From an uncultured virus (IMG/VR IMGVR_UViG_3300035188_001352) (lineage: Duplodnaviria > Heunggongvirae > Uroviricota > Caudoviricetes): a DNA stretch of 56,937 nt. The stretch is from the IMG/VR virus record IMGVR_UViG_3300035188_001352, positions 62,001 to 118,937 of that record; one strand, written 5' to 3'. Below are positions 15,784-56,937 of the stretch, piece after piece. Each line of letters starts with the position of its first letter. Within the stretch, counting starts at the first letter, position 1. Made by a program: the position numbers and the translations under genes. The notes under the pieces were generated by a model. It did no database searches and was not told where the DNA came from. It saw only the letters and a list, made by a program, of their open reading frames with translations.

Positions 15784-16419
15784 AATATATTCTTCTGTTA
15801 ATTGTTCTTTCAATAAAATGAACAACTTTACATTATTTTGTTCAATTACTTTGGCTATTTTTTCTTCATCTTGTTTTGCTTTATAACTATTTTTTGGGTC
15901 TAACCAAATATCATATTCCGGTAAATAAAAATCGGCAAAGTAATTTCTGTTATCATATTTTAAAGCCTTAGGTCTCAACCACTTAATGTTCAGATTATTC
16001 AAAATTTCACTACATCTTAATTCATAACTACTCTGAAGTGTTGTTAGCTTTCCAAAACTATCAATAACTTTCGTTTTTTGGCTTCGCCCAGCATTTTCTC
16101 GATATCCACCGCCTTTAGCAGAATTTACTCTATGTTGTTCTGTATTATCTTTGTGGTATTTTTTACTGCAATAGCCATTAGGTTCATTGTTTTCATAATA
16201 CTTTTTTACGCCTAAACTATTTTCAAATACTCTTGAATCTGTTTCTTTTGTTAGACCTTTATTCCAAGCTTTTCTAATTCCATTTTTATATCCACTATTT
16301 GGATCAAAATCTATACCTCTAATCTTTTTTATTTTGACGCCATTACAACTTTTAATATGTTTTTTAAAATTATTATTAGTTATATCTTTACAACATTTTA
16401 CACAATAAGTAGTTTTCAT
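15763..16419 (-). CDS. Putative free-standing homing endonuclease (PD-(D/E)XK)
   Basis: CxxC...HxxxC Zn finger, AWNKGLTKETD-x-R, QSSYE...YFADFYLPEYDIWLDPKN. Confidence 0.7.
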   Translation of the reverse strand: MKTTYCVKCCKDITNNNFKKHIKSCNGVKIKKIRGIDFDPNSGYKNGIRKAWNKGLTKETDSRVFENSLGVKKYYENNEPNGYCSKKYHKDNTEQHRVNSAKGGGYRENAGRSQKTKVIDSFGKLTTLQSSYELRCSEILNNLNIKWLRPKALKYDNRNYFADFYLPEYDIWLDPKNSYKAKQDEEKIAKVIEQNNVKLFILLKEQLTEEYIRTIIQW

Positions 16420-16443
16420 AATAATCTCACAATCGAAAATTAT

Positions 16444-16451
16444 TATTTATA
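16444..16451 (-). promoter_or_regulatory. T4-type late promoter TATAAATA
   Basis: Exact match, 3 nt downstream of the truncated tRNA-Ile anticodon. Confidence 0.7.
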
Positions 16452-16454
16452 CAG

Positions 16455-16489
16455 ATCAGGTTCACGTTCTACCTTTAAACTAAGGAGCT
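16455..16489 (-). pseudogene. Orphan 5' half of tRNA-Ile(GAT), ending at the anticodon
   Basis: AGCTCCT-TA-GTTT-AAAGGTA-GAAC-G-TGAAC-CT-GAT followed by non-tRNA sequence. Confidence 0.8.
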
Positions 16490-16860
16490 ATTTTTGATGT
16501 CAAACCATTCTTCATTTGATAAAAGTAAACCAATTGGAACTTTTATCATAAATGATGTCATCATTATTACTGCAAGCTTTACTTACCAAATCTGAAAAAT
16601 CTTTCAATGCTGCCAAATACTTTGGCAAAACACATGTAGCATGCACTCGATACATATCGAGTTCTTCAACATAGTGAACACCTGAAAACTTCATCGTAGA
16701 CAAGACTTCCAAGTTTTCATACAAATTTTGTAGAATTGCTTTTACTACTAATTCATTTCCGTTCATCTTAGTTCACTCCACGTTCTTTAGAATATGGGTC
16801 TATTGTATACTAAGAAATCAGTAATGTAAACACTTTTTATGTGAACTGCTTCACAAAAAT

Positions 16861-16959
16861 TGGTGGTGGAGTATCCTGGTAACGCTCACAGGTGGTGACA
16901 GTCGCGAACAGTCACAGAGCTTCACGGGCTCTACCGCCTCTTTAGCGGCTTACTACTCC
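16861..16959 (-). tRNA. Atypical tRNA with GTG (His) anticodon, long variable arm and CCACCA end
   Basis: AGAGC-CC-GTG-AA-GCTCT; variable stem GTGAC/GTCAC; T-loop AGCGTTA; A73; no G-1. Confidence 0.65.
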
Positions 16960-16964
16960 GAAAA

Positions 16965-17161
16965 ACATTATAACCTTACCCACTCTCTCGAGTATCCCCA
17001 CTCTCCACGAGCAGTGAATTATACGCTATACATCCATTCCTACTTTACAATGCTCTACGCGTCGAGCTAAAGTGTTTCGCAACTTTGGTTTGCATCCTAC
17101 TTGTTCAGGCGATCAACAAGAACTTTCGGTTTTCATTTATCCCAGGGTAGAGTTATAATGT
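16965..17161. ncRNA. ~200-nt structured RNA candidate
   Basis: Terminal inverted repeat ACATTATAAC-CTTACCC/GGGTAG-AGTTATAATGT; no ORF; inner hairpins CTTGTT/AACAAG and D-arm-like GCTC-GACGCGTA-GAGC. Confidence 0.55.
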
Positions 17162-17162
17162 C

Positions 17163-17615
17163 TTAGTCAAGATAGCTATCAATATTTTTTGCTATACTTT
17201 TACTCAAGTCTTTACTCAAGTTAGTCATTATTTCAATAATCGTGAAATAAACTTCTTCATTAGTTCTAAGTTCTTTTAGTTGATGATATCTATTCAAGCT
17301 ATCAATCCATAGTTCAATAGTATTCTTATCAGGTATCAAATCAGATATCATCCATTGATGATAATCATTATACTTTGGAACTTTATTTCCTTTCAACTTT
17401 ATAATTCTTATTTGTCTAATCCATCCATCAATATCGCCCAGATGTTTATTGTAGTTCAAATCATCTTTCCATTTTAGAACTTTTATTAGATGTTCAATAA
17501 TAGGATGTGCTAATCCAGTAATTTTACTTTCAGCATCTCTTCGCGAAAATGCCATTTCATACAATATATCCAAAAAACTTTCAGTTAGATTATCAAATAA
17601 TTCTACTAGTTTCAT
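17163..17615 (-). CDS. DUF29-like helical protein with putative capsid-targeting N-terminus
   Basis: MKLVELF...LYEMA; IIEHLIK...H...I-x-x-W. Confidence 0.5.
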   Translation of the reverse strand: MKLVELFDNLTESFLDILYEMAFSRRDAESKITGLAHPIIEHLIKVLKWKDDLNYNKHLGDIDGWIRQIRIIKLKGNKVPKYNDYHQWMISDLIPDKNTIELWIDSLNRYHQLKELRTNEEVYFTIIEIMTNLSKDLSKSIAKNIDSYLD

Positions 17616-17637
17616 TTATCTTTCTCTTTTACAAAAT

Positions 17638-17712
17638 TGGCATCGCGACGGGGAGTTGAACCCCGCTTGTCGGGTTGAAAACCCGATGTCCTAACCGATA
17701 GACGACCGCGAT
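17638..17712 (-). tRNA. tRNA-Glu(TTC)
   Basis: TT-TTC-AA loop, G73-CCA. Confidence 0.9.
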
Positions 17713-17718
17713 ATAATT

Positions 17719-17806
17719 TGGTGGGGAGAGAGGGATTCGAACCCCCTGTGTTTCTGTGTGCCTGGGTTACAGCCAGGTGCCCTTCCGCCGTCAGGACAGT
17801 CTCCCC
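17719..17806 (-). tRNA. tRNA-Tyr(GTA)
   Basis: CT-GTA-AC loop, long variable arm, A73-CCA. Confidence 0.9.
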
Positions 17807-17819
17807 ATAAAATACATAC

Positions 17820-17920
17820 TCAGGATAGTAGGATTCGAACCTACGTCCCGGCATCGGGCTATATTCTCGTTAGAAAACATAGTCCAAATGCCGTGCTAAA
17901 CCAACCTCAGCTACACCCTG
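17820..17920 (-). tRNA. tRNA-Pro(TGG) interrupted by a 28-nt insert (17856..17883)
   Basis: C1:G72, A73; removing the insert restores CGGCA-TT-TGG-GA-TGCCG; acceptor extended by ACATACT/AGTATGT. Confidence 0.75.
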
Positions 17921-17936
17921 AGTATGTACTCTATTT

Positions 17937-17996
17937 TGGTCGCCTATTATAGACCGGGCGAGTAACGGTCACGTCCTTCTACCATTGGTAGATGAC
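17937..17996 (-). ncRNA. 60-nt structured RNA candidate ending in CCA
   Basis: GTC..GAC-CA closure with hairpins CTACC/GGTAG and GACCG/CGGTC. Confidence 0.4.
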
Positions 17997-18324
17997 AACT
18001 TCTTACACCGTATATTTGATTTCCAACACTTCATCTTTCATATCTAATCGCATCCCTGAATAATCACCACCTCTAGGAACATCAAAAGTGATTGAAATAT
18101 CCTTAGCATTAGGATGAATTAACTTCTTTTCTATCAACATTTGAATAATACCTACACCATCAATAAGACCAGTAACTGTTTCAGTCACAACTTTTTGTTG
18201 TATTTCAAACATCTTAGTATTCCTCACTATGTTTTACCGATTATGTGTCTATTATAATCAGATTTTCGTAAATGTAAATGGTTATTTTTGATAACTGCTT
18301 CACATTTTTACTAACTAAAAAACT

Positions 18325-18413
18325 TGGCGGAAGACTGAGGGCATGCTCCCCAAACCTTGTTAGGTTCCCATTGTTTAGCAAACAAGTTCGGTACCTTGAC
18401 CGATTAATCTTCC
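18325..18413 (-). tRNA. tRNA-Ser(GCT)
   Basis: TT-GCT-AA loop, long variable arm, G73-CCA; non-canonical T loop AGCATGC. Confidence 0.8.
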
Positions 18414-18427
18414 AGAAGAGCCTTAAT

Positions 18428-18468
18428 AACAAAAAAGGGATTCTTTTTACGGAATCCCTTTTGTAAAA
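18428..18468 (-). terminator. Intrinsic terminator of putative attenuator
   Basis: AAAAGGGATTC-CGTAAAAA-GAATCCCTTTTTT. Confidence 0.75.
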
Positions 18469-18491
18469 TCTTTATAAGTAAAACTAAAACT

Positions 18492-18632
18492 TTACAAAAG
18501 AGGTCCCCATTCAGGATAACTTCCCTCACTATCAATCGACGCCGATTCCGGTGCATATACTTCCGGTCTGGCTTCAATAGAAGAGCCATAGAACATATCA
18601 ATAATGGAAGGATCGATGATAAAAGTTTTCAT
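18492..18632 (-). CDS. 46-aa putative leader peptide (not in ORF track)
   Basis: Hand translation MKTFIIDPSIIDMFYGSSIEARPEVYAPESASIDSEGSYPEWGPLL*; its 3' end is complementary to the terminator 5' arm. Confidence 0.65.
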   Translation of the reverse strand: MKTFIIDPSIIDMFYGSSIEARPEVYAPESASIDSEGSYPEWGPLL

Positions 18633-18659
18633 TTTACTAAGTTTGTTTTGTTATAAATC

Positions 18660-18722
18660 TATTTATAGAATTTCTAAAAATTATGTAGCTATTATACCAC
18701 AATTTTTTGTGGTTGTAAACAC
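18660..18722 (-). promoter_or_regulatory. Tandem early (GTTTAC..TATAAT) and late (TATAAATA) promoters upstream of the leader
   Basis: GTTTACAACCACAAAAAATTGTGGTATAAT and TATAAATA (18660-18667) on the minus strand. Confidence 0.7.
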
Positions 18723-19283
18723 TTTATTGAAAAAATGCTAAAATTACCACTATCAATACCACAAAAACAATAAACACTCTATAAAGATATTTCAATGCTA
18801 TTGATTGCATGTTCTTATTTCTTGTTGTAGTGGTTTTTGAACCGAAGTCTGTCTTCATCAGTAAGGTCATTGCCTTCCCAATCAAGAATACCAAGCTTTG
18901 CATCTATTTGCCATTGATGTTCTGCTGATTACTTGAAGTAAACAGCAGGTCTCTCAAAGGACTTCTCAAACATTTGACGTTCAGTCATGTCTTATTACAT
19001 GCCAAAAATACTGGATAAATGTTGGCAGTTCTAACATATTTTTTTGAAGCGAAGTGTTGTTCAAATTCATCGCTAAACACCGATTTTGTAATCAATTCAA
19101 AAGGCTCATTGAGCTGTTCCATATAAAATAGTAAATACTTTCCGATTTTTGACTGAAAGTATTCTTTTGACATAGAACCTTCTTTCTCAAAATAACCATC
19201 TTTTTCCCGTTGCTCAATCATTGCACTGATTTGAGCTTCGGAAATCGGTTTATTGTTGGTAATTTGTTCGGCAAAATAATCTT

Positions 19284-19853
19284 TTATTTCCATTGATGTT
19301 CTCGTTTTGATTGATATTTCCAACTTTTTTCTGCATTGCTAAATGCTTCTCTATCCCATGCATCTGGTGGAACTGCTTTTCTTCTATATTGTATCACAAT
19401 GTCAAGCTCTTGTGCATCAACATCGTAGAAGTCATTGCGGTTAGAACCAAATGTATGTATTCTTCTATAGCTTCCAAACGCACCACGTTTTCTTCCATGA
19501 CGACGATTGTGACATCTTACTTTCCAACGATAATCACGTTGCTTTTTCCACACATCATAAAAGCCACTAATATAAGATGGAGACAACCAGTTTCCGTCTT
19601 GGTCATATGCTGCATAATACACCGGATGATTTCTAAAAGAATAAGAAAGATGTCTTGATGCTTTATCTTCATCTGATACTTTATACCAAATCTTATCCCA
19701 ATTGACAAATTGACATAGTACAGACCATTGAGAAAAGTAATTGAAAAAGTTTTCCCAAGTATCAAAGTAGTAATAAGCTACTCGTCTGCTGACTAAGCCC
19801 AAGTTATCATCTACATAATACACATAGATGCCAGGAACATTTTGTATTTTCAT
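19284..19853 (-). CDS. Hypothetical protein with basic C-terminal PDAWD..KSWK..KR..QWK motif
   Basis: ORF track with GGAG RBS. Confidence 0.6.
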   Translation of the reverse strand: MKIQNVPGIYVYYVDDNLGLVSRRVAYYYFDTWENFFNYFSQWSVLCQFVNWDKIWYKVSDEDKASRHLSYSFRNHPVYYAAYDQDGNWLSPSYISGFYDVWKKQRDYRWKVRCHNRRHGRKRGAFGSYRRIHTFGSNRNDFYDVDAQELDIVIQYRRKAVPPDAWDREAFSNAEKSWKYQSKREHQWK

Positions 19854-20199
19854 TTTGAAGCTCTCCGTTACTAAGTAAAATTACCTAGTGGAAACCTTCA
19901 TTCCTCAAATGTAGTATGTATGTCATAATGTTATTGTCCTTTTGATGCTAACATTTCTGTTAGCTTTTGTTTTATTTCAGCATCTGTCAAATCAACTTTT
20001 TCTAAAATGTCTGGAGAATATTCCCACTCTCCATCATCAGAAATCAATATTTCTTCGCTAGTACCAGTATCAGGATTTCTAGATATTGCTAACCCTAAAG
20101 GATGGAGAATATCTCGATTAATACGACGTATCAATCCTAGTTCTGACATTTGGTTCCAATTTATAGATTGTATCATTGCTTTCCAGAATACTTTATGTT

Positions 20200-20276
20200 T
20201 GGTGCATCGGGAGGGAGTCGAACCCTCAAAACCGGGCATCTTAAACCCGTACGTATGCCAATTCCGTCACCGATGC
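20200..20276 (-). tRNA. tRNA-Leu(AAG), short variable loop
   Basis: CGGGT-TT-AAG-AT-GCCCG; Leu-type D arm GACGGAATTGGCATACGT; A73-CCA. Confidence 0.75.
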
Positions 20277-20281
20277 AAATT

Positions 20282-20365
20282 TGGTACCTCTAACAGGACT
20301 TGAACCTGTACGCCATTCGGCACTTGCTCCTAAGGCAAGCGTGTCTGCCATTCCACCACAGAGGC
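20282..20365 (-). tRNA. tRNA-Leu(TAG)
   Basis: CT-TAG-GA loop, long variable arm, CCA. Confidence 0.9.
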
Positions 20366-20369
20366 TTTG

Positions 20370-20861
20370 TTACTTTTTCGACCTAAATCCTAAAGACCTA
20401 CTGTAAGATTGTAATATCATTATATCACATCTTGCTGCTTCTGTACACAAATACTTTGGGTCAGGATACACTCCAACTCGTCCTAAGTCCAACCTATCAG
20501 CATCCCAACATATCTGAGTGGTAATGTCTGCCAGAGTTGCTCCATGAGTGTGGAACATGCATGCATACCGTAAGATGCTCAGTTCAGTATCATCAAGACT
20601 AATGATACCTTTATCATTCAGTTCTTTAGCAAAATCAGCTGCTCGGTCTCCATGTCTATGATCGTGGCCATCATTCAATCGACAACTATCATGTAAGAAT
20701 GCAAACAGTTCAATGACCTTGACATTAGCTCCAGGATAGTGCGTTGCAAGTGTTAGACCATTCAACTTTACTCTTGACCAATGAGCAACTCCATGAATGC
20801 CATTCCAATCCAGTTGATACTTTTGACGAACTGTTTCAATGAGTTGCTTAGTGATGTTCAT
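20370..20861 (-). CDS. HD-domain phosphohydrolase
   Basis: HG-x-x-HW-x-RV, LHDSCR, DADRLDL. Confidence 0.85.
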   Translation of the reverse strand: MNITKQLIETVRQKYQLDWNGIHGVAHWSRVKLNGLTLATHYPGANVKVIELFAFLHDSCRLNDGHDHRHGDRAADFAKELNDKGIISLDDTELSILRYACMFHTHGATLADITTQICWDADRLDLGRVGVYPDPKYLCTEAARCDIMILQSYSRSLGFRSKK

Positions 20862-21283
20862 TATGCTACGTTTAGTGTTTTACCTTTTTGAAAATCTGCT
20901 AACTTAAGACCGCCAGTGAATTGACAATGAGCCATTTCACGAAATCGGGTCCATCTTCCAGCCCATTCTAATCCAACTGACTCAGCAATGACACCGCAAC
21001 GTTCAAATGTTTTGAGGTCTGCCCATTGTGCTTTACCATTTACAACTGGCACGAAATCAAAAGCTACTCGCCAGTTATGCCAGCTTTGACCAGGCTTAGC
21101 ATTAGTTACTTTCTTACCTGGAGTTGTACGACCTTGTGCATAGATTGCAGCTTGAGATTCCAAGTCACGATAAGTGCTAGTAATAAGAACATCAATCCCT
21201 TCTTCATCGCATTTTGCGACAAAGTCACGACACATTTTTGCAACAATTGGATGCAAGTCGTCAATATTTCTAGAGTTTTTCAT
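20861..21283 (-). CDS. M15-family peptidoglycan endopeptidase (endolysin)
   Basis: T-x-TYR...Q-x-x-x-YAQGRT...VTNA-x-x-GQSWHN-x-x-x-AFD...EWAGRW...E-x-x-H. Confidence 0.9.
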   Translation of the reverse strand: MKNSRNIDDLHPIVAKMCRDFVAKCDEEGIDVLITSTYRDLESQAAIYAQGRTTPGKKVTNAKPGQSWHNWRVAFDFVPVVNGKAQWADLKTFERCGVIAESVGLEWAGRWTRFREMAHCQFTGGLKLADFQKGKTLNVA

Positions 21284-21462
21284 AGTTGTTTCTCCAATTT
21301 ATTTTAACTTTCTAATATTTATATACTATATTATTTATTCAAAGTTGCAAAAATGGAAGTTTCAAAACATTTATTTCTATTTTTTAATGAAACTAGTATA
21401 AATATTATTTGCTGAGACTGTTATGATGAGTTTTATTATCAACAATTTAAAAGGAAATAAAA

Positions 21463-21975
21463 ATGAAAAGAGTACTACTTTTATCACTTAGTCTTTTGAT
21501 TAGTTTTTCAGCTTCTGCAGTTATTTTACCTGCAGCAGTCGGACAAACATCAGGAGACTTAAAATTTAATGGAACTGTAGCTCCATCTTGTAATCTTATG
21601 ACTTTTGTCGATGGAACAATTACTACTTCAGCAGACCAAACTCAATTATCTTCTGAAAATTCAGGTGGTTCTCCAGCTTCAGTAAGCTTACGTGCTAATG
21701 TGAATGGATATTCTTTACCATTAGGAACGCCAATTATTATTGGTCCTAATGGAGTTTTATCTGACGCGATTGTAACTTCTTCAGCAATTGGTAATGGTTC
21801 TGATTTATTTGGCGTTGCTGTAAGTCAATTTGGACCAGATGCTGCGTCTAATACATTCTTCTTTGATGGCGGAACATACAACATTGCCGTAAATGCTAAT
21901 GTTACGCGTCAAGATGGTTCTGCTTTCCCTGCTGGAACATATCAATTAAAAATACCAGTATCTTGCACAATGTAA
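21463..21975 (+). CDS. Secreted pilin/fimbrial-subunit-like protein
   Basis: Signal peptide; GDLKFNGTVAPSC start and AGTYQLKIPVSC end; late promoter TATAAATA at 21397. Confidence 0.6.
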   Translation: MKRVLLLSLSLLISFSASAVILPAAVGQTSGDLKFNGTVAPSCNLMTFVDGTITTSADQTQLSSENSGGSPASVSLRANVNGYSLPLGTPIIIGPNGVLSDAIVTSSAIGNGSDLFGVAVSQFGPDAASNTFFFDGGTYNIAVNANVTRQDGSAFPAGTYQLKIPVSCTM

Positions 21976-22453: not shown

Positions 22454-22857
22454 TACTATTACTTATAGTTTCAAATAATGGTTATGGCTCACCAATGATG
22501 CCAATGACTCCTCAAAACTCAATTGGTGGAGATTCTGTTAGAGGACGTGATGGAACAACATGTAATCAAGGAACTCATATTGGCCCTACATTAGATTTTG
22601 GTATTACCGGAACAAAAAATACTAATGCATCTAATAGTTCAGACCCACAAGTTATCAATAATTATTATTCTAATCAAGAATCTTCTAATAATATCGCCGG
22701 TAATGACATTGGAGTTTATGCTCGAATTGTTATTCCTATTGGAGAAGAACCTGCGAGAATTGATTGCACACAACTTTACGCTTTAGAAATAGAACGATTA
22801 AAAATGGAGTTAGAAAACATGAAAAAAGCCGGTTCTTCAGCTGTTAGTATTGAATAA
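22420..22857 (+). CDS. Secreted protein with amphipathic beta-hairpin and C-terminal coiled coil
   Basis: Signal-like N-terminus; TLDFGITG and IGVYARIVIPIG strands; IDC-x-x-LY-x-LEIERLK helix; start uncertain. Confidence 0.55.
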   Translation: MLYSYHKSFSIILLLIVSNNGYGSPMMPMTPQNSIGGDSVRGRDGTTCNQGTHIGPTLDFGITGTKNTNASNSSDPQVINNYYSNQESSNNIAGNDIGVYARIVIPIGEEPARIDCTQLYALEIERLKMELENMKKAGSSAVSIE

Positions 22858-22881
22858 ATTCATTAGTTTATTCGCATTTAT

Positions 22882-22967
22882 TGGTAGCATCGCCCGGACT
22901 TGAACCGGGATAGCCGAAGCTGGCAGATTTTAAGTCTGCTGGGTATACCTAATTCCCCCACGATGCC
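22882..22967 (-). tRNA. tRNA-Leu(TAA)
   Basis: CT-TAA-AA loop, long variable arm, CCA. Confidence 0.9.
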
Positions 22968-22977
22968 ACGTATAATT

Positions 22978-23117
22978 TGAAGTGAATGAATAGGATTCGA
23001 ACCTATGACATGCTGCTTGGATTTGGATAATCATTTTCAACGGTTCAACGTGAATTGAACAAAAACTAAAAACGCTATTTTGATGGCGGCTGCTCTACCA
23101 ACTGAGCTATCATTCAC
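22978..23117 (-). ncRNA. tRNA-like RNA whose anticodon loop is replaced by a Y-RNA-type stem (circularly permuted YrlA-like)
   Basis: 8-bp acceptor GTGAATGA/TCATTCAC, canonical D and T arms; insert TTTTT-GTTCAA-TTCACG-TTGAAC-CG-TTG-AAAATG-A-TTATC. Confidence 0.65.
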
Positions 23118-23164
23118 ATTATTCTATAGAAAAATACTATTTATTCTAATACTTTTTTATAGAA

Positions 23165-23436
23165 TGACTAGCGATTAGAACATACCTGTCTAACCACCAG
23201 TCATCAAGAACCTTTGTCTTACATCTTTTTGCAAATAACCCACATGTTTGACGATGAGTTTGAGTTATATTTGACCGACACTCTAACCACTGAGTTACTC
23301 CACCCCACTTGATACTGACGAGCTATTCAATACCAAGTGGAGGTGGAAATGGGATTCGAACCCACGACTTTCGGTTTATCATAATAGAATGATAAGATTG
23401 TGCCTATTTGCAATTGTTAAGATGCCTTCCTAGTCA
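23165..23436 (-). ncRNA. Large YrlA-like RNA (T arm precedes D arm)
   Basis: TTATC...GTGGG-TTCGAAT-CCCAT, closed acceptor-like stem TCCACC..CCACTTG/CAAGTGG..GGTGGA, then TA-ACTC-AGTGGTTA-GAGT; terminal TGACTAG/CTAGTCA. Confidence 0.65.
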
Positions 23437-23441
23437 CGTAT

Positions 23442-23640
23442 GCTGAGCGATACGAAGAAGATAACTTTGTAATAGAACTGAATACTCACATAAGAGCAGA
23501 ATATGCCTGTTCTTCTACTTCCCCACAAAATATTCTATGTTGATAAAACACTTTGTGGGGAAGGATGGACTCGAACCACCACATCAATTCTAAAACGATT
23601 TACTACAATAATAAAGATAAGTTTGGCTCGTTTGTTTTCT
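23442..23640 (-). ncRNA. YrlA-like RNA, degenerate; ends approximate
   Basis: TTATC...GGTGG-TTCGAGT-CCATC followed by CTTCCCCACAAA/TTTGTGGGGAAG stem. Confidence 0.55.
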
Positions 23641-24031
23641 AATCCAGGTCAATCAAAATGGTATCACCGTCTATGACCTGGACATATCTAATCATATTTA
23701 TCATACACTGAATCATAGTCAATTCAGTTAGAACTTCTATTGCTTGATAATTTCTAAAAAATGGAGATGGAACAATTGCATTTGCAAAATCCCTAAACAT
23801 ATGAGCTCTGATTACTCCAGCTTCTATTGCTTGACCAACAGTTTCAAATACTACTTCATACACAGAATAATCAGAAAGCATATCAGGTACAATACCAGAA
23901 TATTCTGATATGACTTCTTTTAGATTTTCCATTGTAACTTCTTTAGAAGATTTTGCAAACTTCCAAATAACTTGGCCTATACCTTCAGGTCTGTACATCG
24001 AATTTTCTCTCCACTTTATTTCACAATTTGG

Positions 24032-26121: not shown

Positions 26122-26198
26122 TGGTAGGCCGGGAGGGATTCGAACCCGCTGTCTTCACCTTATGAGGGAGTTGCTTATACCGCTTAAGCTTCCGGCCT
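26122..26198 (-). tRNA. tRNA(CAT), probably Ile2
   Basis: AGGCCGG acceptor, CT-CAT-AA loop, imperfect anticodon stem, A73-CCA. Confidence 0.75.
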
Positions 26199-27562: not shown

Positions 27563-27693
27563 AGGATTGACTGAAAGGGGGTTCGAACCCACTACCTACC
27601 TCATGCGGACTTACAGGCGCCACTTATCTGTTAGGAATCGAACCTAACCCCCTGCCCTAGCTGAGATGCTCTGCCGATTAAGCTATTCAGTCA
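27563..27693 (-). ncRNA. tRNA-like RNA with a second T arm inserted in the anticodon position
   Basis: TGACTGAA/TTCAGTCA acceptor, D arm, TCTCA/TGAGG stem enclosing GTTAGG-TTCGATT-CCTAAC, then a normal T arm. Confidence 0.65.
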
Positions 27694-27899: not shown

Positions 27900-28346
27900 C
27901 TACAGTTCCTCAATCGCAGACTTAGCAAATACTGAAGCAGCTTTACCATCATACTGACCAGCATAGTTAGACTTCAAGTATGCCATAATCATACCAATTG
28001 ATGGTGTCTTATCTGCATCAACGACAAACTTGGCAATGATGTTTTCAAGCTCGATGTTTGACATTTGCTTTGGCAGATAACTGTCCAAGATTGCAAGTTC
28101 GCGTTCGGTCACGATAATCTTATTAACATCTTCAACTCGTTCGAAGACATCAAGCATTTCAAGAGCACCGGTCTTGAACTTAGTCAAAACTTTCAGTACT
28201 TCTTCGTCAGTACTTTCACGACTGCCATCGTCTTTACCAGGACGAGAAGCTTCGCCTAACAAAGTTGTTAGATACACTGCTTCAGGCGCTTTAGCCTTGC
28301 GAGCTTCAAGCGAACGGTCTTTGATTTGTTGTAGTAATGAAGTCAT
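27900..28346 (-). CDS. GatB/YqeY-domain protein
   Basis: SLLQQIK..ARKAK, TDEEV, E-x-x-IL-x-x-YLPKQMS, YAGQYDGK. Confidence 0.85.
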   Translation of the reverse strand: MTSLLQQIKDRSLEARKAKAPEAVYLTTLLGEASRPGKDDGSRESTDEEVLKVLTKFKTGALEMLDVFERVEDVNKIIVTERELAILDSYLPKQMSNIELENIIAKFVVDADKTPSIGMIMAYLKSNYAGQYDGKAASVFAKSAIEEL

Positions 28347-30271: not shown

Positions 30272-30544
30272 TTATAATAGTTTAGTTTCTATGATATTTT
30301 CAATTCGAAAAGATCGCCATGCATTCTTATCTAAATCATATACGGCAATCGTATTAGGATTATCAGCTTTATTTTTTGGTTCATAAACACTTTTGTCTAA
30401 TGTCACCGGTATCAAGTCTTCATTGAGGGTGCAGTTCATTATTCGTGTGTCGCCGTTGACTTTGGTAAATGTCACTTGAACTTTATTATGACTCAAAAAA
30501 CTTTTGAGCATTTTTTTACGATTGGCAATATCAGTCGTATTCAT
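30272..30544 (-). CDS. WYL-like/SH3-fold (DUF2693-like) phage protein
   Basis: VTFTKVNG-x-x-R-x-M-x-CTL...VYDLDKNAWRSFR. Confidence 0.8.
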   Translation of the reverse strand: MNTTDIANRKKMLKSFLSHNKVQVTFTKVNGDTRIMNCTLNEDLIPVTLDKSVYEPKNKADNPNTIAVYDLDKNAWRSFRIENIIETKLL

Positions 30545-38428: not shown

Positions 38429-39976
38429 ATGATTGAATGTCCAATATGTAACCGAAAGCTATCTAAAATTGATAAGCAACATCTAAAAGCTCATGGTTTT
38501 TCTAAAGAAGAATACTTTGAACAGTTTGGAAATGATGCTCCATTTGGATATTCACCAGAGCTAAAAGCAAAAAAGTCTGGTGACAATCATCCCCTAAAAG
38601 GTAAAGGTCATTCAGAAGAAACTAAAACTAAAGCTAAACTTGTTGAAACTACAAAAAAACTTTGGCAAGAAGGTAGGGTTTCTGATAAACAAAAGAATGG
38701 TATTGGACAACGATCTAAAGAAGCTGCAGAAAATGGAGAGCATTTCAATACTGGTAGAACTCATGAACGTTCAGATGAATATCGTGAAAAACTGAGTATT
38801 GCGCTAAATGAATATTATCATAACAATCCAAAACCTCCACTTTCTGATGAAAGAATGGAGTTTCAAATACCTCACCTAGAAAAAATTGCTAAGCGAAGGA
38901 AAGAAGAAACCGCTAAAAAACTAGAAACTAATCTTCAAATTGAATGGGGTGAAGTTTTAGAAAATAGTGAACATTTCATATCAGGCAATTTTAGATTTAG
39001 TATCAAATGCAGTACATGTAATAACGTTTCGAATGTTGCATTAGTTACTTTGAAAAAGCATCAATTTGCTAATACTTTATGTCATACTTGCTTCCCTCCT
39101 CTAAAAGGAGAAAGTAAAGCTGAAGTAGAATTGGCTGACTTTGTGTCTCAATATGTTGAAATTGTTAGACATAATAAAAGTATTCTTCCGAATAACTTAG
39201 AACTTGACATTTATATTCCAAGCAAAAACATTGCTATCGAATATCATGGCTTATATTGGCATTCAAGTAAAGCTGGTTATGATAGGTATAAGCATCGGAA
39301 AAAATATGAATTATGTAAAGAACGTGGAATTAGATTAGTTCAAATTTTTGAAGATGAATGGTTGTCAAAAAAAGATTTAGTAAAAAATAAAATCATCAAC
39401 ATTATTGGTTGTAATGTTTCAACGAAACTTTTTGCACGTAAATTACAAGCTAAAATTATTTCATCAAATGAAGCTACGTTATTTCTAAATCAATATCATA
39501 TTCAAGGTTCAGCAAAATCTAAAGTGCAAATTGGATTATTCACTGGTATTGATTTAGTAGCAGTAATGACATTTTGCAGACCTCGAATAATGATGAACCA
39601 AATTGATGATGGTAATACGTGGGAGTTATTACGTTATGCAACTCATAGTGATTATCAGATTATTGGTGGTGCAGGGAAATTATTATCATGTTTTATAAAA
39701 AATAATCCAACAAAGAAAATTATTTCTTGGGCAGATTTGCGATGGACTGATTATAATAAAAATGTATATCAAACCTTGGGCTTTTCATTAGTAGGTGAAA
39801 CTAAGATTGGCGTATTCTTTACTAACTTTACTGAAAGAAAACATCGATGGGGATTTAGAAGACCTGCTCATTTAGGACATGATATTATCACTAAAGATTA
39901 TTGGGACTCACTAGGATGGTATTCTATTTCGGATGCAGGACAACTAAAATATCAATTAGAACTGTCAGATGGGTAA
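38429..39976 (+). CDS. Hef-like free-standing homing endonuclease
   Basis: Zn finger and NUMOD-like repeats; ELDIYIP..AIEYHGLYWHS..IFEDEW; C-terminal WELLRYA..GGAGKLL..DAGQ. Confidence 0.8.
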   Translation: MIECPICNRKLSKIDKQHLKAHGFSKEEYFEQFGNDAPFGYSPELKAKKSGDNHPLKGKGHSEETKTKAKLVETTKKLWQEGRVSDKQKNGIGQRSKEAAENGEHFNTGRTHERSDEYREKLSIALNEYYHNNPKPPLSDERMEFQIPHLEKIAKRRKEETAKKLETNLQIEWGEVLENSEHFISGNFRFSIKCSTCNNVSNVALVTLKKHQFANTLCHTCFPPLKGESKAEVELADFVSQYVEIVRHNKSILPNNLELDIYIPSKNIAIEYHGLYWHSSKAGYDRYKHRKKYELCKERGIRLVQIFEDEWLSKKDLVKNKIINIIGCNVSTKLFARKLQAKIISSNEATLFLNQYHIQGSAKSKVQIGLFTGIDLVAVMTFCRPRIMMNQIDDGNTWELLRYATHSDYQIIGGAGKLLSCFIKNNPTKKIISWADLRWTDYNKNVYQTLGFSLVGETKIGVFFTNFTERKHRWGFRRPAHLGHDIITKDYWDSLGWYSISDAGQLKYQLELSDG

Positions 39977-42571: not shown

Positions 42572-43303
42572 TTACGTTTTTGAATATGATGAAATGACTT
42601 TCCATCCTTTACTTTTACCCCTAGTTACAGGAAGAGTGTTTTGAACTTGAGCTTTATATCTAAAAATTGAATATGCTAAATCAAGTTCTTGACAAAAGAG
42701 CGTTATGTCTCCGGTCTCAATCACTTCTCCGATTGGATTTTCTAATATCCAATTTTTTGCATTATGATTATTTGCTCCTTTCATTTTTATTTTCATAAAT
42801 TCAGAATGTGTTCTACATCTTTCAGAGTTTTCTTTATTTTCTTTAGACATTCTTTCTGAATTTTTTCTATGATGTTCTGTATTAAATTTATTTTTACCAA
42901 GCAGTTTATTACTAATTCGCTGTAGATACTCAAAATCTTCTTTTGTCCTTCCCGATTTGGTTTGTGCCATTCTATCAGTCATTTCTTTTCGTTTTTCGTC
43001 AGAAATACATTGAGCTACACCTAACCCTCCTTGTCCGCCAATAGCAATATTATAAGTATCTTCTCGCATAATCATTTCGGCATTTACAATTTTTGTCTCT
43101 AACTCGTTCATTTCTTCTTCTGAGGAACAAAAATGTAATATTTCTCTAACAAAATTATTTCTGCCATATTTGGCAATAGCGGTTTTTAGAAGTTTTCCAC
43201 TACCTAAATAATTATCGTTAAGATTGTTTGTTTTATGTTTTCCTATATAAAATTTATTATTCACTATACATATAGTTCTATAAATTAGATAAAACGAATA
43301 CAT
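42572..43303 (-). CDS. GIY-YIG (Seg-like) homing endonuclease
   Basis: LIYRT-x-x-x-VNNKFYIGKH, YLGSG, YNIAIGG. Confidence 0.9.
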   Translation of the reverse strand: MYSFYLIYRTICIVNNKFYIGKHKTNNLNDNYLGSGKLLKTAIAKYGRNNFVREILHFCSSEEEMNELETKIVNAEMIMREDTYNIAIGGQGGLGVAQCISDEKRKEMTDRMAQTKSGRTKEDFEYLQRISNKLLGKNKFNTEHHRKNSERMSKENKENSERCRTHSEFMKIKMKGANNHNAKNWILENPIGEVIETGDITLFCQELDLAYSIFRYKAQVQNTLPVTRGKSKGWKVISSYSKT

Positions 43304-56222: not shown

Positions 56223-56937
56223 CTATAATAGTTTGTAGATTGATACTAATGTGGTAGGGTTAATAGTTGATGTTGCTTGAACCCCAGTTTCAATAAGTTT
56301 CATAACAGTTTCATCTAAAGAACTTAAGTCTAATTCTTCAAGCTCAGCAATACTTTCTTCAAGAGCCGCTTGTTGTTCTTTGACATTTTCTTCAAGTATT
56401 AACTCACGTAAGTCGTATAACTCCATAAACTCTTGCTTTAGTGCTTGAGCTTCAGAGTAAGTTACTTCCACATCTAATAAACATCTAACTCGTGCTTTAT
56501 TCTTAGGTTTTACTAATTCATCAAGTAACGAGCTTAACTCAGTTTTTAGATAAGTTGGACCTGCTTCATAATCAATAAAAGATACTTCAGCTGTACTAAC
56601 ATTTAAGATACAACAACCTCGTTCATAATCGCCAGCATCTGCATATGAAGTGCCGAACGGATTACCTATGTAGATAACATTATCAGTTGCTTGTCTTTTA
56701 TGATAATGACCAGAGAAGATATGAGTTGGACCATCAAATAATTTATGATGATATCCATGTTCGGCTCTTGCATTAGTACCAGTCAAATAAAAGTTTCTAA
56801 ACTCAAAATGACCAAAGACATATTTAGATTTATTAACTTGTGGTGCAACTAATGGATATTCATCTTTGAAAAGATAAGGCAATAATAACATATCATTAAG
56901 TTTAGCCGGAGCATCGATAATATGAACATTGTTCAAT
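56223..56937 (-). CDS. Recombination endonuclease subunit, SbcD/Mre11-like (gp47), 5'-truncated by window edge
   Basis: FGHFE, FSGHYHKRQ, YIGNPF. Confidence 0.92.
   Translation of the reverse strand, partial: LNNVHIIDAPAKLNDMLLLPYLFKDEYPLVAPQVNKSKYVFGHFEFRNFYLTGTNARAEHGYHHKLFDGPTHIFSGHYHKRQATDNVIYIGNPFGTSYADAGDYERGCCILNVSTAEVSFIDYEAGPTYLKTELSSLLDELVKPKNKARVRCLLDVEVTYSEAQALKQEFMELYDLRELILEENVKEQQAALEESIAELEELDLSSLDETVMKLIETGVQATSTINPTTLVSIYKLL

Follow-up and report, generated by a model that had tools for sequence, protein, structure and literature searches.

How can a phage tRNA gene contribute to decoding if its transcript is predicted to bury its own anticodon? This question is raised by a tRNA-Pro(UGG) gene in a 56,937-nt stretch of DNA, hereafter the window, which comprises bases 62001-118937 of a 118.9-kb record of an uncultured virus in IMG/VR (IMGVR_UViG_3300035188_001352; CheckV completeness 35%). 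The gene is of the bacterial type, occupies positions 17820-17920 of the minus strand (101 nt, without an encoded CCA), and carries a 28-nt insert in its anticodon loop. It belongs to a class of short anticodon-loop inserts, unclassified by Rfam, that are found in the tRNA genes of giant phages. To our knowledge, bacteria and their viruses possess only self-splicing tRNA introns, and group I introns are the only bacterial tRNA introns of which we are aware. We consider here the reading that the insert is excised by proteins and the exons are re-ligated, to which we assign a probability of roughly 0.4, along with the rival readings that the gene has recently been disabled or that its RNA serves, never spliced, as a tRNA mimic.

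The gene, its insert and the predicted fold

Comparison of the gene with the Rfam model RF00005 gives a score of 43.9 bits (gathering score 29) over the full model (1-71); 30 bases of the anticodon loop stay unaligned, as against the 2 that the model expects. The two strands of the anticodon stem are separated by 35 nt, and a 7-nt loop presenting UGG appears only after 28 nt are removed in silico. In its default mode ARAGORN missed the gene; its intron mode (-i) reports a tRNA-Pro(tgg) with a 28-nt intron. The sequence includes C1-G72 and A73, which are identity elements for proline.

Removal of the insert in silico between nucleotides 36 and 37 yields the loop TTTGGGA, and removal between nucleotides 37 and 38, the placement chosen by ARAGORN, yields TTTGGAA; default ARAGORN recognizes both of the resulting forms as a normal tRNA-Pro(tgg). 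From sequence comparison, the insert would be placed most parsimoniously between G36 and G37, because the uninterrupted ortholog in the closest relative that we found (contig G001, described below) has the loop TTTGGGA and stems that differ only by compensated changes. An earlier note on this DNA, made from the letters alone, had called the insert intron-like, a description that holds for its position and for its pairing with the anticodon. The insert sequence given there matches window positions 17856-17883 exactly, and the TTTGGGA loop that it expected upon excision is reproduced in silico by a cut at 36/37.

The minimum-free-energy fold of the RNA is a cloverleaf with a lengthened anticodon arm. 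Read from its base to its tip, the arm begins with 7 bp, followed by a U34.C mismatch, a 2-bp helix, a bulged A, a 10-bp helix and, at the end, a UAAC loop. The basal 7 bp comprise the 5-bp anticodon stem together with U32-A38 and U33.G37, and the 2-bp helix is formed by G35 and G36 with CC, at a pairing probability of 0.999. With G35 and G36 locked within a 19-bp rod capped by a 4-nt loop, the RNA as transcribed is predicted to be incapable of decoding. The earlier view that TGG pairs with CCC in a hairpin of about 20 bp is thus accurate for G35 and G36, which pair with CC, and fails for U34, which faces a C. Both irregularities of the rod adjoin junctions between exon and insert: the 5′ junction has the bulged A beside it, and the 3′ junction the U.C mismatch.

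The entire tRNA-Pro RNA has a predicted energy of -43.1 kcal/mol (z = -4.9), a value as low as which was reached by none of 200 shuffled sequences. For the 45-nt arm, the energy is -23.2 kcal/mol as compared with -12.1 +/- 2.5 kcal/mol when the insert is shuffled. Because only 2 of 3000 such shuffles attained the observed value, the hairpin is not expected to have arisen by chance. Pairing of G35 and G36 is by itself unremarkable, being present in 1843 of the 3000 shuffles. Two of the ten base pairs of the insert stem are G.U on the tRNA-sense strand, and the insert is therefore not a perfect palindrome at the DNA level.

Relatives, source phage and authenticity of the insert

The closest relative that we found, G001, is a 56-kb IMG/VR contig in which a neighbouring protein is 57% identical to its counterpart. 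Its tRNA-Pro(tgg) gene is uninterrupted (75 nt, loop TTTGGGA) and lies directly beside a tRNA-Glu gene, a neighbour that the window gene has as well. Relative to the tRNA-Pro of the window, the D-arm is identical, the T-arm differs by one base, and the acceptor and anticodon stems differ by compensated changes only. The exons of the window gene are intact, and all four of their stems pair.

The T4-like structural genes of the 118.9-kb record encode gp23, gp20, gp21, gp15, sheath and gp46/47-like proteins. In its major capsid protein, the phage shares 50-60% identity with four jumbo phages whose genomes measure 309-385 kb: Ralstonia phage RsoM2USA, Xanthomonas phages XacN1 and Xoo-sp13, and Stenotrophomonas phage RAS14. 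The source is a jumbo myophage from freshwater that is related to RsoM2USA and XacN1. As these capsid relatives infect Ralstonia, Xanthomonas and Stenotrophomonas, the host is a bacterium, in agreement with a tRNA-Tyr bearing a long variable arm and an Lpp-like lipoprotein encoded in the record. Nucleotide searches of INPHARED with a 2-kb region and with the tRNA alone returned no match.

The possibility that the insert is an assembly artefact was ruled out by its presence in other contigs: it recurs in a second, near-identical IMG/VR contig, in a contig of a metagenome from the Joint Genome Institute (JGI) that is identical over 316 aligned bases, and in contigs of public runs. Among the latter, contigs from lake and freshwater runs, which may include the source sample, carry all sampled words of a 3-kb region around the gene (17 DNA rows, share 1.00). 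One DNA contig and one RNA-library contig span the tRNA-Pro gene without any difference, and the 3-kb region is monomorphic in the public runs examined.

No contig joint that skips the 28 nt was found in two RNA libraries and one DNA run of one sample or in one small RNA run. Contigs from RNA libraries may derive in part from DNA and lose rare forms, and standard libraries miss mature tRNA, such that these data neither show nor exclude splicing. Joints near 17845-17849 were set aside as likely artefacts of repeats or of other organisms, since their sides are 20 nt long and lead to other tRNA-like places. The X19 RNA contigs break at 17906/17929, near the 5′ end of the tRNA, with uneven depth (3.3 versus 18.8 and 45.3), which is at most a weak hint of processing; X20 has no cover over 16353-18607.

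Excision, disablement or mimicry

From the gene, the insert, its predicted structure, its uniqueness and the inventory of ligase and cREC genes, we infer each excision and ligation step of the following pathway. The precursor would be trimmed as is any tRNA. Two cuts would then be made at the junction irregularities, the bulged A on the 5′ side and the U.C mismatch on the 3′ side, by a structure-specific nuclease, for which the candidates are the RNase III of the host, with the rod of about 20 bp as its substrate, and a metal-independent RNase that leaves a cyclic phosphate. Finally, an ATP-dependent RNA ligase of the phage (Rnl2/Rnl1 type) would close the nick in the anticodon loop to give the loop UUUGGGA, with cREC or a polynucleotide kinase healing the ends if needed. 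In this fully specified form, as a true protein-dependent intron whose rod is cut by host RNase III or a cyclic-phosphate-forming RNase and re-sealed by a phage RNA-repair ligase, we consider the proposal unlikely.

Several observations speak for a spliced tRNA. The exons are pristine, and removal of the insert restores exactly the loop of the ortholog. No other tRNA-Pro is seen in the available 119 kb, and the clade never goes without such a gene: each relative examined has one or more for Pro(UGG). CCA, the cognate codon of UGG, is the commonest proline codon of the phage (47% of proline codons; 30,220 codons counted). The hairpin is predicted to be non-random and is no perfect palindrome in the DNA, with irregularities at both junctions. 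Anticodon-loop inserts recur in this clade, and RNA ligases are present in it.

Enzymes that might act in this pathway were sought in five related records, of which four are complete and one (G001) is partial, and among the 197 open reading frames (ORFs) of the 119-kb record. An Rnl2-family RNA ligase of the ATP-dependent type (PF09414) is encoded by all four complete relatives; it was not found in the partial G001 or in the partial source record. Because Rnl2 is present in these four relatives and a gene for a cREC_REC protein lies among the tRNA genes of the source phage, it is plausible that phages of this clade could use a ligase of their own to seal a nick in the anticodon loop. According to excerpts of Iyer et al. 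(2021; PMC7824862), XacN1 has three paralogs of Rnl2, and the phosphoesterase domain cREC is linked to RNA ligases; the general theme of tRNA repair also appears there.

The pathway resembles the tRNA repair of phage T4 in that a phage ligase (Rnl2 in the relatives, accompanied by cREC in the source phage) would seal a break in a tRNA anticodon loop. In T4, the anticodon loop is cut by PrrC, healed by Pnkp and sealed by Rnl1. The T4 pathway differs in mending a damaged host tRNA rather than removing an encoded insert. With regard to the cuts, RNase III is universal in bacteria, excises the intervening sequences of 23S rRNA and cuts hairpins of the T7 R1.1 type, and it leaves ends (5′-P, 3′-OH) that suit Rnl-type ligases. 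After RNase III excision, 23S rRNA containing intervening sequences is not re-ligated. Like RNase III processing hairpins, the predicted tRNA-Pro arm is a rod of some 20 bp whose helix is irregular inside, where the cuts would fall; measured against a substrate of that length, the predicted fold offers 19 bp with one mismatch and one bulge. Unlike the canonical 2-nt stagger of RNase III, the rod requires a stagger of 3 nt on the tRNA side. This route would need the enzyme of the host, because RNase III is found in none of the five related records.

A number of findings weigh against excision and re-ligation. Uninterrupted Pro(UGG) genes occur in RsoM2USA, XacN1, Xoo-sp13 and RAS14, often in two copies, and since only about 35% of the genome is available, the source phage could also possess a second, intact proline gene. 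Sixteen of the 17 viral loci that share a D-arm 20-mer with the gene are uninterrupted (8 distinct sequences), and the seventeenth, which has the insert, is the near-identical IMG/VR contig mentioned above. A metagenome scan for this tRNA with any post-anticodon insert of 16-46 nt returned one identical locus only, and the insert thus offers neither conservation nor covariation; it is a singleton. Given that the orthologs are uninterrupted and that the insert is found only in identical or near-identical copies, sequence comparison indicates that it is a young, lineage-specific gain of this phage species. An RNA-library contig (X18, record 2) spans 16979-21528 unspliced and without differences. 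Detection is biased as well, the anticodon loop being among the few sites at which an insert leaves a tRNA detectable. As to the enzymes, the splicing endonuclease and RtcB-like ligase that the earlier note had in mind did not materialize: EndA (PF01974; the control matches four archaea) and RtcB (PF01139), which the host might still supply, are each absent from all five related records and from all 197 ORFs of the record, as is RNase III (PF14622), and an RNA ligase was not found in the available 119 kb. The ligases that this clade does possess are the Rnl2 enzymes of the four complete relatives.

The rival that survives best holds that the gene has recently been disabled. A hairpin-forming insertion of 28 nt, arising as a break-repair scar or by template switching, would have killed decoding, and the RNA would be transcribed with its neighbours but have no function, while another tRNA-Pro copy or the tRNA of the host covers proline. 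The absence of the insert from all orthologs favours this account, as do the lack of any splicing nuclease known in bacteria, the absence of EndA, RtcB and RNase III from the five related records, and the combination of relatives that often have two Pro(UGG) genes with a genome two thirds of which is unseen. Homing-endonuclease genes of the GIY-YIG, HNH and T5orf172 kinds, whose products are capable of making breaks, are present in the record. The earlier note had named the lack of conservation as a sign of a pseudogene; the insert is indeed a singleton, which leaves that reading alive, and the monomorphic 3-kb region provides no time over which selection could be judged. The exons nonetheless show no decay whatever. 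The palindrome is imperfect, with its G.U pairs on the RNA-sense strand, and had an old insert drifted to this state, the exons should have drifted too. Moreover, the helix irregularities fall exactly at both junctions, and other insert-bearing tRNA genes of the clade are conserved across diverged phages. We regard recent disablement as a serious possibility, albeit one that we rate somewhat below even odds.

A second rival, which we consider improbable, is that the RNA is never spliced and functions as a non-decoding tRNA mimic, for example by acting as decoy or sponge to a host defence or enzyme that binds tRNA, or by joining an RNA-repair complex. An intact tRNA body with a buried anticodon would be suited to such a role, the source phage and its relatives encode tRNA-bodied RNAs in which a conserved domain replaces the anticodon loop, and a weak YrlA-like match (25 bits versus a cut-off of 69) lies nearby at 23276-23373. 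Set against these points is what removal of the insert yields, a perfect proline loop in which ortholog and window gene are identical; this is expected of an interrupted decoder rather than of a purpose-built mimic. The insert is also a singleton without conservation, and with G35 and G36 buried, recognition through the anticodon is unlikely. These two nucleotides are identity elements for prolyl-tRNA synthetase (ProRS).

The remaining candidates fare worse. Introns of the archaeal/eukaryal type, which a splicing endonuclease (EndA/TSEN) cuts at a bulge-helix-bulge before RtcB or Trl1 joins the exons, have two 3-nt bulges around a 4-bp helix, prefer position 37/38 and pair with the anticodon; the tRNA-Pro insert is like them in lying beside the anticodon, in pairing with anticodon bases and in that its removal would depend on a ligase and a nuclease made of protein. 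In place of this 3-4-3 motif, the tRNA-Pro fold has a 2-bp helix between a 1-nt bulge and a 1x1 mismatch, which bears out the earlier remark that no clear bulge-helix-bulge is visible, and with EndA and RtcB absent from the five related records and the record ORFs, and with a bacterial host indicated by the hosts of the relatives, the long-variable-arm tRNA-Tyr and the Lpp-like lipoprotein, this reading is close to refuted. Group I tRNA introns, such as those of cyanobacterial tRNA-Leu(UAA) and Azoarcus tRNA-Ile, likewise reside in the anticodon loop, some between nucleotides 36 and 37, but they are about 200 nt or longer, contain a catalytic core and follow a 5′-exon U. A self-splicing intron of this kind was rejected, as the insert comprises only 28 nt, matches no Rfam group I model (Intron_gpI) at the gathering threshold or at E <= 1, and follows a 5′ exon that ends in G36 (or A37); the earlier judgement that it is too short to self-splice therefore stands. 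Cleavage by RNase P or RNase Z on a 12-bp upper helix, taken as a mini-helix, was also rejected, on geometry only: the 3′ cut fits and the 5′ cut does not. The rest of the probability falls to explanations that we have not thought of.

Other interrupted tRNA genes, known systems and implications

The insert is a single-copy sequence in the window and in the 119-kb record. An 18-mer of the insert is shared by 4 unrelated viral loci (3 distinct sequences; L029 = L030), none of which is a tRNA and none of which is alignable. We therefore rejected the idea that it is a repeated or mobile hairpin element. Two other tRNA genes of the window have inserts in the anticodon loop (Table 1). In the larger of these, a domain of about 60 nt replaces the anticodon loop, as it does in six tRNA-bodied genes from five viral contigs: this gene, two in G001, and one in each of three other large viral contigs. 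All six exceed the Rfam tRNA model's cut-off, at 40.9-48.6 bits. The domain is characterized by TCGTTTy, a hairpin, ACCG and AAATGrTTATCC, with a helix CGTTTy/rAAATG that is kept throughout, and a loop of the U33 type is visible in none of the six genes. In the one copy searched (window positions 22800-23700), the domain has no Rfam family at E <= 1. Homology of the 28-nt insert to this domain was considered and dropped: the helix that they share (GTTTTC/GArAAT) is too short for a test, and alignment kept them apart.

Contigs from two RNA libraries and one DNA run contain 786 extra letters between 23078 and 23095, within the gene at 22982-23116. They mark a variant in the population whose insertion is far larger and may be an endonuclease cassette or an intron of full length. 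The weak match to YrlA, a Y RNA-like RNA with a permuted tRNA-like module, lies on the minus strand in a region (22880-23600) that is dense in tRNA-like pieces. In the gene at 27568-27692, which adjoins a YqeY-like gene (27903-28346), the insert holds a T-arm-like piece (TTAGG TTCGATT CCTAA) and resembles those Lak phage inserts that "may encode a tRNA".

Lengthened anticodon arms are also encountered farther afield. An XacN1 tRNA with a Phe-like body (30282-30387, corresponding to L017 2282-2387; 45.6 bits) has an anticodon arm that is longer by about 33 nt and ends in the 7-nt loop TTTTCCA. Among 65 viral loci that share only a T-arm 20-mer with the tRNA-Pro, three others bear post-anticodon inserts. 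One of these, L205, has a 25-nt hairpin at position 37/38 of a Lys(UUU)-like gene; it can be aligned with L222, with which it has the motif TACAGCAAT in common, and their insert hairpins differ by compensated changes.

Table 1. Features of the tRNA-Pro gene, its surroundings and other interrupted tRNA genes. Positions refer to the window unless the whole record or a locus (L) is named.
Feature	Position	Strand	Remarks
5′ exon, tRNA nt 1-36	17884..17920	-	acceptor 5′ strand, D-arm, anticodon-stem 5′ strand, U32 U33, anticodon
Anticodon U34 G35 G36	17884-17886	-	end of 5′ exon
28-nt insert, 36/37 reading	17856..17883	-	bulged A, 10-bp hairpin with UAAC loop, CCC tail
Insert, ARAGORN 37/38 reading	17855-17882	-	
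3′ exon	17820..17855	-	G37, A38, anticodon-stem 3′ strand, variable loop, T-arm, acceptor 3′ strand, A73
Extended anticodon arm	17849..17893	-	19-bp rod, one U.C mismatch, one bulged A
tRNA-Tyr(GUA), long variable arm, encoded CCA	17719..17806	-	Rfam 24.7 bits; 13 nt downstream of tRNA-Pro
tRNA-Glu(UUC), encoded CCA	17638..17712	-	ARAGORN, Rfam
74-aa ORF	18003-18227		between promoter-like site and Pro-Tyr-Glu cluster
Sigma-70-like promoter match TTTACA-16-TATAAT, 11/12	18251..18278	-	consensus match only
Second tRNA-bodied gene, ~62-nt anticodon-loop insert	22982..23116	-	Rfam 45.3 bits; conserved structured domain
Third tRNA gene, 51-nt anticodon-loop insert	27568..27692	-	Rfam 35.3 bits
Homing-endonuclease gene, GIY-YIG	42575-43303		
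Homing-endonuclease gene, HNH	38429-39973		
Homing-endonuclease gene, T5orf172			in record
cREC_REC protein, 111 aa	record bases 56422-56754 (L007 18422-18754)		outside window; E = 4.8e-16; among tRNA genes
Gene with ~60-nt domain	L024 964-1091, 3179-3310	-	
Gene with ~60-nt domain	L076 160-285	-	
Gene with ~60-nt domain	L088 135-260	+	
Gene with ~60-nt domain	L167 164-286	-	
tRNAs with post-anticodon inserts, 101-118 nt	L205 193-310, L222 193-309, L229 193-293	-	Rfam-supported; large phage contigs

The tRNA-Pro belongs to a large complement, at least 21 Rfam tRNA matches being present in the record. Those called by ARAGORN are Gln, Cys, Thr (two), Met, Val, Arg, Trp, Phe, Lys, Asn, Asp, Gly, Ala, Ile, Glu, Tyr and Leu (three). 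Default ARAGORN passes over the Rfam matches at 1152-1225 and 26125-26198 (-), which score 36.8 and 47.5 bits. An 866-nt "intron" proposed by ARAGORN at 278-1225 looks spurious, and Rfam has a complete 74-nt tRNA at 1152-1225. Upstream of the Pro-Tyr-Glu cluster, promoter-like sites are no more frequent than expected (2 found versus 2.4 expected in the region). Just upstream of the promoter-like site listed in Table 1, which is a strong one, some 750 nt (18240-18985) are free on both strands of ORFs that reach 80 aa, and Rfam finds no match there at the gathering threshold. Outside the window, about 30 ORFs of 210-310 aa are arranged in tandem on one strand (record bases 6650-29076; L005, L006). 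They have no Pfam match, and their like sizes and tight spacing suggest a paralogous family.

The closest parallel to the tRNA-Pro insert is found in the Lak megaphages, and it is one of description, not of homology. In Devoto et al. (2019; PMC6784885), "enigmatic" introns are described in Lak tRNA genes, present in some and absent from others among close relatives; they were predicted with eukaryotic tRNAscan settings, tested against Rfam and left unclassified, and Table S6 of that work gives lengths of 23-141 nt and starts 1-2 nt after the anticodon. The tRNA-Pro insert agrees with that description in being short, in being unclassified by Rfam, in lying 1-2 nt 3′ of the anticodon, in a length (28 nt) within the same range, and in being present or absent among relatives with conserved exons; neither kind of insert has a known mechanism of removal (compare PMC6784885). 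The differences from the Lak material in the same source are that the present phage belongs to a jumbo clade with a T4-like core, near XacN1 and RsoM2USA, and comes from freshwater instead of the gut, and that its 28-nt insert is confined to one species. Unlike several Lak inserts (PMC6784885), and unlike the insert at 27568-27692, the tRNA-Pro insert is a plain hairpin without a tRNA-like piece. Our literature search found no paper on how short phage tRNA inserts are removed, and neither insertions nor introns come up in PMC10264068.

Since 2019, giant phages have been known to carry short tRNA inserts that lack an explanation, and the tRNA-Pro is a further case. It is an unusually clean one, with an insert of the smallest kind, a plain hairpin, and with a close ortholog that is uninterrupted. 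Because that ortholog exists, the junctions are known and the joined product can be searched for directly. If the RNA is never spliced, the gene would be a dated example of phage tRNA genes dying or turning into mimics. If instead the insert is excised and the exons are re-ligated, decoding of proline by this tRNA would be switched on only once the repair enzymes of the phage had been made, and until then the buried anticodon would be immune to the anticodon nucleases of the host. The RNA-repair genes of jumbo phages would in that event constitute a splicing machinery, one that would also explain the short tRNA inserts of the Lak megaphages.

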